From a virus (taxonomy: Duplodnaviria; Heunggongvirae; Uroviricota; Caudoviricetes): DNA of 44,807 nt. A program made the position numbers and the translations under genes. The stretch lies in IMG/VR virus record IMGVR_UViG_2541047834_000005, positions 1 to 44,807 of that record; one strand, given 5' to 3'. Positions 27,283-33,874 of the stretch are shown here, piece after piece. Every line of letters starts with the position of its first letter. Positions within the stretch are counted from its first letter, which is position 1. Under the pieces are notes generated by a model. The model worked only from the letters and a program-made list of their open reading frames with translations, had not been told where the DNA came from and did no database searches.

Positions 27283-27557
27283 TGGACAAACACCCTCCCA
27301 TTGTTAACCAATTTTTTAAGGGTAAGCACAATGGCCCGCTCCATTTCAGCCCTTCGCTCTTCCCTGCTCATATCTCTCCCATTATCAATTCTTGAATGAC
27401 AATCAACACATAGCGCAGCAGTAAGGCAATCATCTACTTTAATCCCAACCCCCTTCCCTTCATTTCTGTGAGCGGCCTGAACTCCGTATCTTCCGCAAAG
27501 AACGCAAAATTCAATATCCCTGACTGCCTGAAGCCATTTTTTGCTTCTAAACATCAA
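27279..27557 (-). CDS. DUF1364/YbcO-like Cys-rich putative nuclease
   Basis: 92 aa with C-x2-C...AH...C-x2-CH spacing. Confidence 0.5.
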   Translation of the reverse strand: MMFRSKKWLQAVRDIEFCVLCGRYGVQAAHRNEGKGVGIKVDDCLTAALCVDCHSRIDNGRDMSREERRAEMERAIVLTLKKLVNNGRVFVQ

Positions 27558-28056
27558 TCCCCTCCAAAAAACGTCGGTACGCTGATTTGTTTTTTATGTT
27601 GCACACTGTCTGCGCACAAACACCAAATTCTTTGGCTATATCTCTGTATTTGCCTTTTGATTTATATATTGATTTCACTTGTTCTGGCGTTAGTTTGCAG
27701 AAGTGATGATTAAAACCATGAACAAGCAACCCGGAATCAAATCCATGTTTCGCATTTTCTGTTCGCGTTACCCACTCAAGATTTTCAACTTTATTATTAA
27801 GTTTATTTCCATCCTTGTGATTAACTTCCGGTTTGCCATCTGGGTTATCAATAAATACTTCTGCAACAATTCTGTGAACCATTTTATATGATGGTCTTTT
27901 CCCGCCACCTGGATACAGACCGACAAATGCATATCCTCCTGGTTTAATGCCATGAGATAATTTTTTTGATTTACGGCATGAAATGATGTCTCCATTTTCA
28001 GTTACTTTATATATACCCTCAAAGCCGGGGATATCTTTTTCTTTAACATCATTCAT
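27547..28056 (-). CDS. HNH homing-endonuclease-like protein (NUMOD4 + HNH_3)
   Basis: 169 aa; GFEGIYKVTENGDI (NUMOD4-like) and NHKDGNKLNNKVENLEW (HNH); AT-rich, interrupts the nin gene order. Confidence 0.7.
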   Translation of the reverse strand: MNDVKEKDIPGFEGIYKVTENGDIISCRKSKKLSHGIKPGGYAFVGLYPGGGKRPSYKMVHRIVAEVFIDNPDGKPEVNHKDGNKLNNKVENLEWVTRTENAKHGFDSGLLVHGFNHHFCKLTPEQVKSIYKSKGKYRDIAKEFGVCAQTVCNIKNKSAYRRFLEGIDV

Positions 28057-28398: not shown

Positions 28399-28933
28399 GC
28401 CGCCCTCCTGACGCCCTGCCCGATCGCCATCAATGCCGCTTTGCATACGGTGGTAAACATCCGTCGAGGACTGATGAACGGTCGCCAAATCAGCAGCATG
28501 GAGCCTTTGCTGTTTCCCTTCTTCTCCAGCCCTGTCGATGGTTCGATAAAATTAATCCGTCCATCAGTGATAATGCGAACTTCGTCGACACTCTCCAGAG
28601 CCTTGCTGAACCATCCGACTGACATATCCTCTGGCACAAGCATCACTACCGTCTGTCGCTGTTGTATGCACTGCTCAGCGGCTTTTTCCACCCACGGCCT
28701 GATATTGCTGTACGGTGGGTTATTCCAGATTGCACCGTGGCTTACCCACTCAGAATTGAGCGCGTCGTCGGCCTCAGTTAGCCAGTGAGCACACAGAGCA
28801 TTTTTGTCGCTCGCTGCCGAATCCAGCCAGAATCCAGCCAGAATCCAAACTCAATATCCAGTGCATCAAAAAGCCAAAGCGGCGTTTGCCAGCAGTCCTT
28901 GTCGTGTGCTGGCGTATTTGATTTGATAGTCAT
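28395..28933 (-). pseudogene. Phage Dam-like DNA N6-adenine methyltransferase, frameshifted by an 11-bp tandem duplication
   Basis: 5' fragment (MTIKSNTPAHDKDCWQTPLWLFDALDIEFGFWLD...) and 3' fragment (...NNPPYSNIRPWVEKAAEQ...IIWRPF) are in different frames; removing one copy of the repeat at 28821-28842 restores one ORF. Confidence 0.65.
28821..28842. repeat. Perfect 11-bp tandem duplication (atccagccaga x2) at the methyltransferase frameshift point
   Basis: Read directly from sequence. Confidence 0.85.
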
Positions 28934-29370
28934 GCAGCCCGATCTCCCCATCTCGCTTTCCACTCCAGAGCCAGTCGCGCTTCGTCCGACCACTTAACGC
29001 CACGCTCTGTACCGAATGCCTGTATAAGCTCTAATAACTCCGCAAATTCGCTTACACGCATCCTGCTGGTTGACTGGCCTATTACCACAAAGCCATTCCC
29101 GGCAAGGTTAGGAACAACGTCCTGCTGCTTTAATGCTGCGGTAAACACACACTTCCAGCTTTCTGCATCCAGCCAGCGACCATGCCATTCAACCTGACGC
29201 GAAACGTCACCAAGGCAAGCCCAAAGCTTTCGATTCTGGTCTAAGCTGCGGTTGCGCTCCTGAATGATCACTACGATTGGCTTGGTTGGGTCTGGAAGGA
29301 TTTGCTGTACTGCGTGAATAGCGTTTTGCTGATGTGCTGGAGATCGAATTTCAAAGGTTAGTTTTTTCAT
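28930..29370 (-). CDS. ninB: NinB recombination protein
   Basis: Near-identical to lambda NinB from MKKLTFEIRSPAHQQNAIHAVQQ. Confidence 0.85.
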   Translation of the reverse strand: MKKLTFEIRSPAHQQNAIHAVQQILPDPTKPIVVIIQERNRSLDQNRKLWACLGDVSRQVEWHGRWLDAESWKCVFTAALKQQDVVPNLAGNGFVVIGQSTSRMRVSEFAELLELIQAFGTERGVKWSDEARLALEWKARWGDRAA

Positions 29371-29447
29371 GACTTCCCTCTCCCCCAAATAAAAAGGCCT
29401 GCGATTACCAGCAGGCCTGTTACAAGCTCAGTGATGTAGATGGTCAT

Positions 29448-31328
29448 TTAATACTCCGTCACGTTTTCCTGTCGCCACGCCTCGTCATATTCCGATTTCG
29501 GCATATTGGCGATGTAGCTATATGGCGATCCTGATTCAAGTTGCAGGAACTGGTGCGATTGTTCATCAAGGAACAACGGGACACCACCTTCCCAACCTTC
29601 GCCGTTACGTTGTTTTTCAAGCATCAAAACAGATGCCGGAGATGCCAGTAGCTGTTCGTCCTTCTCTGACATCTTTTCACCACTCTGAACTCTCTGTAAC
29701 GCTCTCTCGCGAGCCTTGTTACGCCAGATGATGAAAAGGTTGTCTGTCAGGTCTGTTATCGCTCCAGAGCCTTTTACGTCCATTTTCCCGGTTGGTTTTT
29801 CTTCGCTGTCTCCTTTTCGCGAGTGAGTAACGAGAATGACGTGGGAGTTTGTTTTGTTTTTGAAGTCGCAAATCGAGTCAACAAACGCCTTCTGCCCGTT
29901 ATAGTCATCGTCGCCTATGCCACATTTCATCAGGCTGTCGATGATGAATAACTGGATGCCGTATCGGCGGCGAGCGTAGTCGAATATTTCGATCAGCCTG
30001 TCGGCTTTCGCCGTTCCGGTCAGGCCAAACACCCAAAGTCTTTCGTCATAAAATTTAAATGCAGAGTCAATTTCCAGCACTGGCGGCATCTTGCAGCACG
30101 TTGCCTGACGGGTAAGTCGCTTAAGGAGAATGCCTGGCTTCAGCTCAAGTGATGCAATGCAGGTCTTTACACCCTGACGCATTGCCTCAAGTGCCATATG
30201 CCCGACAACCTCCGTTTTTCCGTGACCGTTCACACCATTGACCAGCGTCAACTCGGCCTCACGGAACTGGAATTTATCTGCCAGAGATTCCCACGGTGGA
30301 TTAAACAGATACTGCTGCTTGCCGTAGAAAGCGTTGATAGTGTCCTGGTAAAACTCTCGCGCGCTGTAGAGTTCTTCAGGATCGAAGTAGGATGCCGTGC
30401 CGATGTACTGCCAGATTTCATCCTCGGTAACACCGTTCATCAGGCATTCGTTGATGTCTTTGTACGGCAGAGTAACAAGACGGCAACGATGTTCACCGAG
30501 TCGGCTTGCGATTTCCCTTGCGGCTTCACGACCAACATCATCAACGTCCATCGAGATGAATATTTCCTCAAACCTGTCGAGGTTGTGATACTCAAACTCA
30601 ATCCACTGTTGCTTAGCACCTTTCCCGCCACCAAACGGCACGGATAACGCCGAGATGCCGTATTGCGCATAGCTCATACAATCAATTTCGCCTTCGCAAA
30701 GTACAACCGCCCTCACGCCAGCGTCCAGAGCCTGCCATCCGAACAGACAAGGTTCGCAATCACCTTCTGCCATAATGACTTTCTTCCCGTCCGGGCGCTC
30801 AGTGCTGATTCGCTTGACCTGCAACAACTCACCATCGCGTTTGTACGGAAGCACCAGAGCATCCAGTTCTCGTTCTCCATTCCACACCTTGCCGCTGACA
30901 ACCTCGTAGCGCTTTACGACTTCTGGCGATATGCCACGCGATTGCAGGTACTCAAGATGGGATTCTGTTCTGGTAACGTAGCGGGCGATTTTCTTGCGAT
31001 CAGGTCTGGAGAATTTCTTCTCACGTTTGGCATCGAAATGGTGATCGTCATCCTTGATACCGAGAAATGCTTTCGCTTCCTGCATAGCCTGATGCAGGTT
31101 AATTCCTCGACATGCCATCCACAAATCAAGCATGTCACCGCCGTCTCCCTCAGCGAAATCAGCCCATTTTTTCTTGCCGCTAAGGTTGACCTTAAGGCTG
31201 TTTCCCTTGTCACCGTTGACGTTACCGGCAACCCACTCATGCCCCTCTTTTTTGCCGTTTGGCAACAGGTGCGGAGCCACCCTGTCAACCTGCGACCAAA
31301 GCAGGTCGCTGAGTTCACTTGGCGTCAT
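29448..31328 (-). CDS. Bifunctional DNA primase / DnaB-like replicative helicase
   Basis: 626 aa; toprim-like LCEGEIDCMSY segment; Walker A GVNGHGKT and Walker B IIDSL; occupies the P position after O. Confidence 0.7.
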   Translation of the reverse strand: MTPSELSDLLWSQVDRVAPHLLPNGKKEGHEWVAGNVNGDKGNSLKVNLSGKKKWADFAEGDGGDMLDLWMACRGINLHQAMQEAKAFLGIKDDDHHFDAKREKKFSRPDRKKIARYVTRTESHLEYLQSRGISPEVVKRYEVVSGKVWNGERELDALVLPYKRDGELLQVKRISTERPDGKKVIMAEGDCEPCLFGWQALDAGVRAVVLCEGEIDCMSYAQYGISALSVPFGGGKGAKQQWIEFEYHNLDRFEEIFISMDVDDVGREAAREIASRLGEHRCRLVTLPYKDINECLMNGVTEDEIWQYIGTASYFDPEELYSAREFYQDTINAFYGKQQYLFNPPWESLADKFQFREAELTLVNGVNGHGKTEVVGHMALEAMRQGVKTCIASLELKPGILLKRLTRQATCCKMPPVLEIDSAFKFYDERLWVFGLTGTAKADRLIEIFDYARRRYGIQLFIIDSLMKCGIGDDDYNGQKAFVDSICDFKNKTNSHVILVTHSRKGDSEEKPTGKMDVKGSGAITDLTDNLFIIWRNKARERALQRVQSGEKMSEKDEQLLASPASVLMLEKQRNGEGWEGGVPLFLDEQSHQFLQLESGSPYSYIANMPKSEYDEAWRQENVTEY

Positions 31329-31435
31329 GATTCCCTCAGATTGAGATTTTTAAACCAGAAATCGACAAACGAAATACTTAACCAGCCGTGGTTATAACCA
31401 GCGACCAGTAGCGATTTGATTTTTGATTTCATGGT

Positions 31436-32296
31436 TCACCTGTCGAAAAACACGTAGCCAGTTTTCGATACGGTGATTGCGGATAATGGTTTGGATTGTG
31501 GTTGAATAGTTTCTGGCTTCTCGTCGTTCCAGCGTTGACCGTTCAGGTAGCTCGATGGTAACAACCTGTCGAATCCGAACTGCTTACCATTCCTGCATGC
31601 GATGTCTTCTGCCAGCATCGTGGCAAACTCGCTTGCCGTACCACTGGTAGTTTTACGCCATTCCCTGAACTGTGTTCTGAATGCTGAAACTGCGTTTTTC
31701 TTCCCGGCTTTCCGCATGCCTGCACACCAGAATATTTCCTCGAATGCCTTGTCGGTTTCTTCGTGACGGTCAGATGATTTTTCACACTCCGTCCGAACAC
31801 TTTCGGACATAGTGTTTTTATTATTTCTTTTTTCTTTTGTAATAGTTTCTTTTGTGTGTCCCTGTTTTGGTGACAGCGCTGTCACCGTTTTGGTGACACT
31901 TTTTGTCACCAATGTAGTGACATTATCACCAGAGTAGTGACACCCTTCGATTTGCCATTCCTCGATGTTCTTGTTAGGCCCGATTTGCTGGCCTTCGCGA
32001 AGGATAACCTTCATCGCGATAAGCTCATTCTTGGCCTTGTTTACCTTCTGTCTTGGCAGCCTGGTAATTTGAGCTAACTGACTATCAGAGATGCGATCCA
32101 TCTTTTTACCGTAGCCGTATGTTTTACGGCATATGGCGTGGGCAACCTTGCTCTGATTTTTCGTTAAATCTGCGCCGATAAGCTCTTCATACAGGGCATT
32201 TGCAAGACGGGTATAACCATCTTCAACTTCTGCCACACGACGCTCCACAGGCCGTTGTGAAGGCCTTAAATGTGTTACGGTTGCAAGATTACTCAT
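31436..32296 (-). CDS. Replication initiator O-like protein
   Basis: 286 aa; N-terminal domain resembles lambda O ([21 protein letters not shown]...MDRISDSQL); ori iterons lie inside the gene. Confidence 0.75.
31811..31946. repeat. Putative replication origin: AT-rich tract followed by GGTGACA/TGTCACC iteron dyads inside the O gene
   Basis: Five or more copies of the 7-mer as palindromic pairs (tggtgacagcgctgtcacc, tggtgacactttttgtcacca, ...) within ~80 bp, preceded by a ~50-bp AT-rich stretch. Confidence 0.6.
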
Positions 32297-32480
32297 GACC
32301 TTTCTCCTTCTGCATCAGCTTCACTTTTTCCAACTCAGCCCGGAATCGACCAGGCTGCTTGAAGCTGGACAGGAAGCGATCACGTAGTATGTGTTTGTGA
32401 ATTTTGTCCTGGTAAGGACTGAGTTGTTTTGTCATAATGACTCCTGTGGATTGATCCAGTCTTTCTACATCAGGCCTCAA
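32289..32480 (-). CDS. Small hypothetical ORF bridging cII and O
   Basis: 63-aa ORF overlapping both neighbours by a few bp; no recognisable family. Confidence 0.2.
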
Positions 32481-32748
32481 AACTGTTGCCGCAGTCTTGA
32501 GGCTTTTCTTTTGTCAGCACCATGGCTACTTTCTTTGCCAGCTCCGCTAATTCCTCGTCTTCAACACCCCACTCCAGTACAGCCAGAAGCATGGCCATCT
32601 TTGGGATAAAGCTGTCTTTCCATCGCGAAATTTGCGATTCATTGATCCCTAATGCATCAGCAACCTTTCGCTGACCACGTACAGCAATTCGATTTAGGAT
32701 GTTGCTTGTAATTGCATTCGCTTTCTTGCGAGTACTTGTAAGTTGCAT
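32470..32748 (-). CDS. cII: cII transcriptional activator
   Basis: Start at internal ATG ([23 protein letters not shown]...); ESQISRWK...[19 protein letters not shown] matches lambda cII; AAGGAAA RBS upstream. Confidence 0.8.
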
Positions 32749-32781
32749 ATGTAAGTATTTCCTTAACAAATAAGAAGTTAT

Positions 32782-32799
32782 GCGCACCAACTGATGCGC
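32782..32799 (-). terminator. tR1-like hairpin between nutR and cII
   Basis: GCGCA-N8-TGCGC dyad followed on the transcribed strand by a T-rich tract. Confidence 0.35.
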
Positions 32800-32806
32800 G
32801 TTGTAT

Positions 32807-32851
32807 TCCCGCATTTCGGCGGGAATGAGGACCATGACTGTTAAAGAGCGG
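32807..32851 (-). promoter_or_regulatory. nutR (boxA CGCTCTTTAAC plus boxB hairpin TTCCCGCCGAAATGCGGGAA)
   Basis: boxA-like sequence and perfect hairpin between cro and cII; identical boxB found in nutL. Confidence 0.6.
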
Positions 32852-32856
32852 TGTTA

Positions 32857-33051
32857 CTATTTGTTTTTCTTGTTGCTTGGGAAAGGACGAACTTCCTCTC
32901 CAATCACACTGCCATCAGGCTTTACCGTAACCATAATGTTACGGCCTGCCAGAATGGCCTTGCTGATAGCGCACTGGATTACACCAAAGTCACTGGCTGC
33001 TTTAGCCTGTCCATGGATTTTGGCGTAATCGGCAAGTGTCATTCGAATCAT
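32857..33051 (-). CDS. cro: Cro repressor
   Basis: [33 protein letters not shown]...FPSNKK aligns with lambda Cro; GGAGAG RBS. Confidence 0.8.
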
Positions 33052-33080
33052 ATGCACTCTCCGTTATTAACCATGAACAA

Positions 33081-33151
33081 AGAATACTACAGGTATTCAA
33101 AGCAATCAATACTCAGGGTATTTTTAGTTTAAGTACCTTAGTTATTAGAAT
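33081..33151. promoter_or_regulatory. oR region: two AATAC-N5-GTATT operators (33083-33097, 33108-33122), pR (-10 TATTCT, -35 TTGATT on minus strand) and leaderless-type pRM (-10 TAGAAT 33146-33151)
   Basis: Two perfect dyads 25 bp centre to centre overlapping candidate pR hexamers; TAGAAT ends 6 nt before the cI ATG with no SD. Confidence 0.55.
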
Positions 33152-33157
33152 TAAGCT

Positions 33158-33874
33158 ATGGAAAATAAAAAATCACTGACGACAGAACAGCTCGAAGACG
33201 CTAAGCGGCTTAAGGCTTTGTATGAGTCAAAAAAGAAAGAATTGGGAATAACCCAATACTCAATCGCTGATGAACTGGGTATCACCCAAGGAGCGGTAGG
33301 GCATTATCTTAATGGCAGAAACGCGCTAAACGTTGAGGTTGCATCTGGTTTTGCACGACTGTTGCAAGTCTCAATTGCTGATTTTAGCCAGTCAATTGCT
33401 GCCAAGGTTGCAGAACAGGCAGAAAGCCTTAAGAGCGATGCCAACGTAAGGTATGCAGGGGAATACAGAGCAGGAAAGAGGTATCCGGTGTTAAGCAGTA
33501 TCCAGGCTGGCTCGTGGTGTGAAGCATGCGAACCATACACCATTAAAGACATAGATGTTTGGCTTGAGTCTGACGCGCATATTCAAGGTAATGCGTTCTG
33601 GCTTAAAGTGGAAGGTGATTCAATGACGGCACCGGTTGGGTTAAGCATTCCAGAGGGAACATTCGTTCTTTTCGATACCGGAAGGGAGGCGATCAACGGC
33701 AGCTTGGTCATAGCAAAACTTTCTGACTCTAACGAAGCAACATTCAAGAAGCTGATAATCGACGGCGGAAATAAATACCTCAAGGGACTTAACCCTGCAT
33801 GGCCTCTCGTGCCAATCAATGGAAACTGCAAGATTATAGGCGTTGCAATTGAGACAAAACTAAGGCTGGTTTGA
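33158..33874 (+). CDS. cI: cI repressor (HTH + LexA/S24-like autocleavage domain)
   Basis: 238 aa; N-terminal HTH (QYSIADELGITQGAVGHYLNG) and C-terminal S24 region (GDSM...K). Confidence 0.85.
   Translation: MENKKSLTTEQLEDAKRLKALYESKKKELGITQYSIADELGITQGAVGHYLNGRNALNVEVASGFARLLQVSIADFSQSIAAKVAEQAESLKSDANVRYAGEYRAGKRYPVLSSIQAGSWCEACEPYTIKDIDVWLESDAHIQGNAFWLKVEGDSMTAPVGLSIPEGTFVLFDTGREAINGSLVIAKLSDSNEATFKKLIIDGGNKYLKGLNPAWPLVPINGNCKIIGVAIETKLRLV

Follow-up and report, generated by a model that had tools for sequence, protein, structure and literature searches.

How does a lambda-like phage that has an initiator of the O family, but lacks the P protein as helicase loader, bring a helicase to its origin of replication (ori)? 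This question is raised by a stretch of 44,807 nucleotides (IMG/VR virus record IMGVR_UViG_2541047834_000005; the whole stretch is hereafter called the window), in which an O-like gene precedes a gene for a protein of 626 amino acids (aa) with primase and helicase motifs. Our analysis points to a lambdoid replication module of the ES18 type, which combines a lambda-style ori inside the initiator gene with a phage-encoded helicase-primase. We give this reading a probability of roughly 0.85. An initial annotation of the locus, whose coordinates, protein length and description all proved correct, had already suggested that a loader of the lambda P type was missing. This claim held, as no homologue of lambda P or ren was detected in the window by tblastn (nothing better than E = 0.49). 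The coordinates of all features are compiled in Table 1.

The 626-aa protein is related to T7 gp4 and Twinkle

The product of the putative primase-helicase gene gave Pfam matches to Toprim_2 (3.1e-12) and, marginally over the cut-off of 27 bits, to AAA_25 (2.1e-06, 28 bits). DnaB_C scored 23.8 bits and remained under its cut-off, which is also 27, and no Pfam match to the DnaB N-terminal domain was obtained. Over its full length the protein matched PHROG 239, 'DNA primase/helicase' (2e-171). The best sequence matches to solved structures found by phmmer were T7 gp4 (2.7e-23) and Twinkle (6.5e-14), and hhalign placed aa 100-538 on T7 gp4 residues 53-505 with a probability of 99%. When an AlphaFold model of moderate confidence (mean predicted local distance difference test score 66, predicted template modelling score 0.41) was submitted to Foldseek, human Twinkle (7t8c) was the top match (E = 2.5e-21, 621 columns), followed by T7 gp4 (6n9x, 5ikn and 1q57, about 1e-19); Aquifex DnaG with its zinc-binding and polymerase domains was also retrieved.

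All catalytic residues that were checked are present. In the Toprim domain these are E212/E214/D216, D261/D263 and D291, the motifs EGEID, DVDD and KDINE aligning to EGEID, DMDE and KDANE of T7 gp4 (T7 E157, D207/D209 and D237). In the superfamily 4 (SF4) helicase domain, K371, E395, D464, H502 and the arginine finger R536 aligned to the corresponding T7 gp4 motifs. Among 123 full-length representatives, roughly 35-62% identical to the window protein, the acidic Toprim residues are conserved in 94-99% and the helicase residues in 95-100% of the sequences. The family is large: at E <= 1e-3 it comprises 8,342 cluster representatives, of which 852 remain at E <= 1e-30. The search for these motifs had been named beforehand as the test by which the initial annotation could be refuted, and it turned out in its favor. 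The description as a toprim plus DnaB-like P-loop protein has to be modified in one respect: Toprim and SF4 helicase motifs were indeed found, but they are of the gp4/Twinkle type. Judged by sequence and fold comparisons, the protein is an SF4 primase-helicase of this type and not an orthologue of DnaB, to which it is similar at the level of the SF4 superfamily only. Helicase and primase activities are predicted from the conserved catalytic residues.

With T7 gp4 and Twinkle the window protein shares the arrangement of a Toprim primase domain, a linker and an SF4 helicase domain in a single polypeptide, with the checked catalytic motifs aligned and conserved, at an identity of about 20-26%. 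Unlike these two proteins it is proposed to be recruited by an origin-binding protein in a temperate phage; a phage polymerase that could be its partner was not seen.

The C-terminal tail (…NVTEY), which is acidic and, like that of T7 gp4, has an aromatic residue at its end, was considered as a docking signal for a polymerase, of the T7 gp4 or single-stranded DNA-binding protein type, and rejected because the feature is not conserved: only 19% of 124 family members terminate in F, Y or W, compared to 9% in the background, and the mean charge of the tail is -0.8.

A primase-helicase N-terminus without zinc ligands

DnaG and T7 gp4 carry a zinc finger at the N-terminus. The N-terminal domain of the window protein is strongly conserved and devoid of Cys/His zinc ligands. 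C73 is the sole cysteine within aa 1-190, and neither Cys4, CHC2 nor other conserved Cys/His columns occur in the 123 relatives. The hhalign alignment to T7 gp4 begins only at T7 residue 53. Nevertheless, aa 21-80 are about as conserved as the catalytic domains and show the motif LLPxGK..G.EW..G…G..G.SL.V.L.G…W.DFA.G..GDLLDLW. A match to the NCBIfam dnaG model over aa 26-143 was far under the cut-off. With E. coli DnaG aa 30-99, hhalign gave a weak alignment (E = 0.002, probability 14%), in which the zinc ligands C40/H43/C61/C64 fall opposite G35/N38/D57/E60. A profile of 22 N-terminal domains searched against all PDB sequences yielded chance matches only (E > 0.2), and a Pfam search with aa 1-201 returned nothing even at E = 10. 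The domain may be related to the zinc-binding domain of primases while being zinc-free itself, an assignment of low certainty.

These data bear on the possibility that the protein is a helicase only, whose primase half, like that of metazoan Twinkle, has a structural or recruiting role and does not prime, so that the host DnaG would have to make the primers. We consider this unlikely. In its favor, zinc ligands are missing from aa 1-95 and are not conserved in any of the relatives, and the ligand positions of DnaG are occupied by other residues in the weak alignment. T7 gp4 and plant Twinkle have an N-terminal Cys4 zinc-binding domain, whereas animal Twinkle and the window protein both possess N-terminal domains without zinc ligands. 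Animal Twinkle is described as a helicase only, which lost its primase activity (PMC3610141), and the zinc finger of plant Twinkle as directing template recognition (PMC10557236). On the other hand, the loss in animal Twinkle is attributed to sequence changes in the primase domain (PMC3610141), while the window protein has kept the acidic Toprim residues: E212, E214, D216, D261, D263 and D291, together with the basic K172, K182 and K183, show 79-99% conservation across the family. Moreover, the strong conservation of the N-terminal domain in spite of the missing cysteines argues for a working, zinc-independent domain.

An O-type initiator with a lambda-style origin

The initiator matched Pfam Phage_rep_O (PF04492) with aa 20-114 (1.5e-37; 128.5 bits, cut-off 28.7), NCBIfam phage_O_Nterm (TIGR01610; 1.7e-30, 105.3 bits, cut-off 45.5) and PHROG 277, 'replication initiation O-like' (3.6e-55). 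Its N-terminal domain is about 50% identical to that of lambda O. The lambda-type C-terminal domain, which contacts P and is encoded together with a downstream P gene, was not found, as the C-terminal part of the window protein (aa 165-286) is just 21% identical to lambda O. This part matched no Pfam family, and for the full-length initiator the PDB contained no solved relative.

An O-like initiator gene containing GGTGACA/TGTCACC dyad iterons beside an AT-rich tract had been claimed for the locus, and this was corroborated by the Phage_rep_O match, four iterons and a tract of 83% A+T. The iterons have the consensus TGTCACC-N5-GGTGACA, and their span (31857-31942) encodes initiator aa 119-147. 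For TGTCAC-N5-7-GTGACA two occurrences were counted against 0.02 expected. The sequence GGTGACA occurs 14 times in the window (5.1 expected), four copies lying inside 31869-31910. When the ori region was folded as single-stranded DNA, the structure was more stable than those of shuffled sequences (z = -7.2); in this fold the dyads form pairs and the A+T tract stays single-stranded.

The ori region aligns throughout with lambda ori. In coding direction the start-to-start spacing of the window iterons is 20, 24 and 23 bp, the same as that of the iterons annotated in lambda at 39034, 39054, 39078 and 39101. The A+T tracts of both phages are near-identical (…CACAAAAGA-ACTATTACAAAAGAAAAAAGAAA…) and encode T-I-T-K-E-K-R. 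Lambda also shares with the window the position of ori inside the initiator gene, a palindrome beyond the tract, a two-domain initiator and a recombination joint at the A+T tract. The two phages differ in the iteron sequence, which is TGTCACC…GGTGACA in the window and ATCCCTC…GAGGGA in lambda, and in that lambda has P and ren, i.e. a DnaB loader at the place where the window encodes a helicase-primase. By analogy to lambda, the initiator would bind the iterons in its own gene and the A+T tract, presumably the DNA unwinding element, would be opened.

Natural domain swaps link the initiator C-terminus to the primase-helicase

For comparisons between phages the initiators were divided into an N-part (aa 1-148, including the iterons) and a C-part (aa 165 to the end). 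The N-part of the window is 99% identical to that of PhiR12_2, a phage with lambda-type P and ren genes, while the C-parts share only 21% identity. ES18 gp59, whose partner is a primase-helicase, gave the opposite result, with 49% identity in the N-part and 95% in the C-part. Correspondingly, lambda O and the PhiR12_2 protein are 50% and 100% identical in the N-part and C-part, respectively, and lambda O and ES18 gp59 88% and 21%. Judged by these values, PhiR12_2 is the reciprocal recombinant of ES18. The hybrid initiator gene of PhiR12_2 (locus L086, 3042-3947) contains the window-type N-part and iterons (DNA 99.8% identical), and at the A+T tract these pass over into the C-part shared with lambda. 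This tract is the crossover point of the mosaics; relatives in Shiga toxin (Stx) phages match the window only up to position 31820. Stx2a_F451 combines an unrelated HTH_36 N-terminal domain with the same C-part (84% identity, aa 143-286), followed by the same 35-aa gene and primase-helicase.

We also inspected the 80 closest IMG/VR matches to the C-part (at least 96% identity), five of which have a lambda-type N-part. All 74 loci with at least 2.1 kb of downstream sequence carry the 35-aa open reading frame (ORF) and the primase-helicase and none carries P, though they do not represent 74 independent events because the loci are near-identical relatives. More distant loci were sampled by scanning bacterial sequences with a 9-sequence alignment of the primase-helicase, which gave 78 loci. 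An ORF of 113-446 aa ends at most 450 nt upstream of the primase-helicase relative in 75 of them. The N-terminal domains of these upstream ORFs include DUF1376 (12), Phage_rep_O (9), HTH_36 (7), Lin1244_N (3) and DnaD_N (2). With an iterated profile, the C-part core (aa 177-269) was detected in 18 of 76 such upstream proteins. These include proteins from Pelagibacterium, Variovorax and Acidovorax, whose associated primase-helicases share 38-45% identity with the window protein. These results suggest that an upstream gene with a variable N-terminal domain and a primase-helicase gene form a widespread two-gene cassette.

Relatives of 37-48% identity, present in Legionella, Coxiellaceae, Bartonella, Pelagibacterium, Variovorax and others (loci L107-L169), are nearly always directly preceded by a gene for 113-446 aa.

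Since in the natural domain swaps the C-part segregates with the primase-helicase and the N-domain with the iterons, the best-supported reading is that the N-part recognizes the iterons and the C-part acts as a handle for the primase-helicase. This would parallel the division of labor between lambda O and P. It is very improbable that the primase-helicase is instead a self-sufficient initiator, comparable to P4 alpha and the Rep primase-helicases of plasmids and islands, with the O-like protein and the iterons being dispensable or regulatory. Such a reading would be compatible with the wide variation of the upstream N-terminal domains across Proteobacteria, as they are so different that the upstream partner cannot be regarded as fixed. 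However, the helicase belongs to the SF4 gp4 type and not to the superfamily 3 type of P4 alpha, an upstream ORF is almost always closely linked, and the C-part co-segregates with the primase-helicase through three N-domain types. In addition, the ori architecture copies that of lambda, where O is essential, and neither the primase-helicase gene nor its vicinity showed a set of iterons, the repeat search being limited to 31700-32050.

A small gene lies between initiator and primase-helicase

The 626-aa protein had been regarded as the product of the gene next to the initiator. A Toprim/helicase gene does lie downstream, but an ORF of 35 aa intervenes. It begins 3 nt past the initiator stop codon, and its own stop codon overlaps the primase-helicase start (ATGA). 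The 35-aa gene is translationally coupled at both ends. The deduced product is MKSKIKSLLVAGYNHGWLSISFVDFWFKNLNLRES; it did not match any known family. The gene corresponds to that of ES18 gp60. A copy in Min27 has the same length and 77% DNA identity; 9 of the codon changes are synonymous and 10 non-synonymous, and insertions or deletions are absent. Genes of this length encoding the motif LLIAGYNHG..S..FV..WF were found at 14 of 18 loci from Enterobacterales, the most divergent having a primase-helicase of 54% identity. Among the loci examined, the gene was missing from Xenorhabdus, Phaseolibacter and every distant relative. The ORF is very likely a real gene; a role of the product as adaptor is speculation. 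The gene, like the zinc-free N-terminal domain and the proposed role of the C-part as a recruitment handle, goes beyond what had been noticed in the initial annotation.

Proposed mechanism and dependence on host functions

According to the layout of the locus, rightward early transcription from the cI/cro region would cover cro, cII, the DUF2740 gene, the initiator gene, the 35-aa gene and the primase-helicase gene, and would stop or be modulated at the hairpin following the latter. The N-terminal domain of the initiator, by its homology to lambda O and the co-variation of N-domains and iterons, is expected to bind the four iterons within its own gene, and the resulting nucleoprotein complex, in analogy to lambda, may open the adjacent 42-bp A+T tract. 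The domain swaps suggest that the C-terminal approximately 120 aa of the initiator then recruit a hexameric gp4-like primase-helicase, the counterpart in lambda being the P-DnaB complex. The ring may be loaded on the opened DNA without a dedicated loader, possibly assisted by the 35-aa protein, which is speculative. Given the residues present, the SF4 motor would unwind the DNA and the Toprim domain would synthesize primers. DNA synthesis would be performed by the host polymerase, because no phage polymerase was found among the scanned left-arm proteins (Erf, Ead/Ea22, DUF551 and integrase).

Under this model, the phage should be able to do without the host DnaB and any loader of it, and probably also without DnaG. 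For DnaB, independence can soundly be inferred; for DnaG it is less certain, the reason being the N-terminal domain without zinc ligands.

Several points weigh against the ES18-type reading or parts of it. A form of T7 gp4 without the zinc-binding domain cannot perform template-directed priming, and the zinc ligands are likewise absent from the window protein. The model also demands that a gp4-like helicase couple to the host polymerase. The AlphaFold structure is of moderate confidence, the 74 loci with linked C-part and primase-helicase are close relatives, and the C-part was detectable in only 18 of the 76 upstream proteins. For metazoan Twinkle, loss of primase activity and a function as helicase only have been described (PMC3610141). 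The Stx version of the module represents the replication type 'Eru5', and the replication proteins of related 'Eru' types are experimentally uncharacterized (PMC8951638). In the searchable literature we found no published experiments on this type of module, including its dependence on DnaB or DnaG. On the other side, the module is present in the viable isolated phages mEp043 and Sf101 with 98.5% identity.

A more far-reaching version of the model appears doubtful to us. It supposes that the lambda-O-type origin complex itself serves as the loader of a gp4/Twinkle-type ring via the C-terminal domain of the initiator, that the 35-aa protein is a tiny adaptor or loader restricted to Enterobacterales, that the cysteine-free N-terminal domain replaces the zinc finger in template reading or in docking to the initiator, and that a hybrid replisome is formed with the host polymerase III holoenzyme. 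If true, this would be an uncharacterized way of building a replisome. As a discovery the module itself matters little, since its architecture is annotated and widespread. It is, however, common in E. coli and in Stx2a-converting phages of the phi24B, Min27 and F451 type, and the dependence of these prophages on DnaB, DnaC and DnaG bears on Stx-phage replication and toxin output.

Related modules in other phages

ES18 (AY736146) contains genes 59, 60 and 61 in the same order as the window, i.e. an O-like initiator gene with internal ori, the 35-aa gene and the gene for a 626-aa primase-helicase, followed by the nin region. Its DNA is 88% identical to window positions 29452-31869. ES18 differs in its lambda-type N-terminal domain (88% identical to lambda O) and in lambda-type ATCCCTC iterons, whereas the window has TGTCACC iterons and an N-terminal domain that is 49% identical. 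In the GenBank record of ES18, gp59 is called 'similar to phage lambda gpO' and gp61 a 'putative primase/helicase; similar to phage T7 gene 4'; gp60 is given as unknown, and a rep_origin 'similar to lambda ori' is listed as well. Modules of this type also exist in epsilon34, where the region has been noted (PMC2629481), and in the Anderson typing phages STMP5/17. The reading as initiator and primase-helicase has already been published (PMC10307801). By gene order and position relative to the nin region, the window module can be assigned to the ES18-type lambdoid modules; its architecture is known and ordinary, because the arrangement is already annotated in ES18 and many other phages.

The closest relatives over the whole module (3 kb) are mEp043 and Sf101 (98.5% DNA identity each), vB_EcoP-720R6 (98.3%) and SEN22 (91.4%). 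They also share the N-terminal domain and the iterons, and there is essentially no difference inside the module. Sequences matching the module were found in 846 of 5,426 complete E. coli genomes, 167 of which cover at least 80% of the query. That the window represents a decayed, non-functional prophage remnant is scarcely credible: although it is prophage-like and the iterons lie within coding sequence for a repetitive peptide, of which they might be a by-product, the three reading frames are intact and 98.5% identical to those of isolated phages, position and spacing of the repeats exactly match the lambda iterons, and the dyads are far above chance.

P22 genes 18 and 12 similarly consist of an O-like initiator gene and a gene for a phage replicative helicase in place of a loader (PMC10307801). 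In the same source, P22 gp12 is characterized as DnaB-like and without homology to the primase-helicase (PMC10307801); the window helicase differs in being gp4-like and fused to a primase.

The Stx phages phi24B, Min27 and Stx2a_F451/F403 ('O2/P2', 'Eru5') are 96.8-98.2% identical to the window over positions 29448-31820. They possess the same C-part, 35-aa gene and primase-helicase, but an N-terminal domain of the HTH_36 and not the Phage_rep_O family. For the 'P' protein of phi24B, TOPRIM and GP4d_helicase domains and an intein at residues 372-702 have been reported (PMC3430580). We observed an intein of approximately 340 aa (Hint plus LAGLIDADG endonuclease) right after the Walker A GK in primase-helicase relatives of Stx phages and Cronobacter, e.g. 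in protein P0012, in Min27 (locus L003, 2501-5409) and in Stx2a_F451 (locus L089, 1201-4107); the window primase-helicase does not contain an intein. In the Min27 record EU311208 the annotated 'O' gene (L003, 5520-6295) leaves its frame in the C-part region, and the primase-helicase appears as two genes, 'P' and 'ORF31'. We rejected a biological meaning of these features, as Stx2a_F451 has both genes complete and without a frame change; errors in sequencing or mutations confined to the Min27 record are the probable cause.

Genetic organization of the locus and adjacent genes

The region is the early-right operon of a lambda-like prophage. All three genes of the module reside on the minus strand, and all of their reading frames are intact. 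The hairpin ahead of ninB is strong, directly follows the primase-helicase stop codon and occupies the position of lambda tR2. No known RNA families were found in 28800-33400, where a single match had E = 0.28.

Table 1. Features of the replication module and its surroundings in the window
Feature	Position	Strand	Remarks
cI	33158-33874	plus	
cro	32857-33057	minus	
cII	32470-32835	minus	ORF
Small DUF2740 gene	32289-32480	minus	ORF between cII and initiator gene, position of P22 orf48
Initiator gene, lambda O family	31436-32296	minus	ORF, 286 aa plus stop codon
Predicted N-terminal origin-binding domain of the initiator	31955-32239	minus	aa 20-114, extent of the Pfam match
Iterons, four 19-bp dyads	31924-31942, 31904-31922, 31880-31898, 31857-31875		Repeat search
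A+T-rich tract, 42 bp	31811-31852		83% A+T (50% in the whole window), 29 A on the coding strand
Palindrome past the A+T tract	31784-31797 and 31802-31815 (arms)		Perfect 7-bp core GTCCGAA/TTCGGAC
C-terminal partner-specific part of the initiator	31439-31804	minus	aa 165-286, conserved core aa 177-269
35-aa ORF	31325-31432	minus	
Primase-helicase gene	29448-31328	minus	Exactly 626 aa
N-terminal domain of the primase-helicase	31044-31328	minus	aa 1-95, strongly conserved, no Cys/His zinc ligands
Primase RNA-polymerase domain, Toprim fold	30399-31031	minus	aa 100-310; EGEID 212, DVDD 261, KDINE 290
SF4 RecA-type helicase domain	29709-30266	minus	aa 355-540; Walker A GVNGHGKT 365, SLE 393, Walker B FIIDS 461
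Terminator-like hairpin	29395-29418	minus	8 pairs, 6 of them G-C, then T run
ninB	28930-29388	minus	Downstream of the primase-helicase gene

The product of the DUF2740 gene is called 'tail protein' by PHROG 1913 and in RefSeq phage records. This label is doubtful because the gene is situated between cII and the initiator gene, and it looks like a propagated mis-annotation.

Outside the early region, window positions 839-22669 are approximately 96% identical to virion genes of the Shigella phages SfII and SfI, the annotated genes including that of a tail sheath, and a gene for a lambda-type integrase is located at 42319-43389. The combination of SfII-like structural genes with a replication module of the mEp043/Sf101 type shows the window to be a mosaic, and one that is composed differently from mEp043, Sf101, vB_EcoP-720R6 and SEN22. 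Within the nin region, an ORF of 169 aa on the minus strand (27547-28056) encodes the sequence …IPGFEGIYKVTENGDI…NHKDGNKLNN…LEWVT…, which by eye looks like a homing endonuclease of the HNH/NUMOD type.

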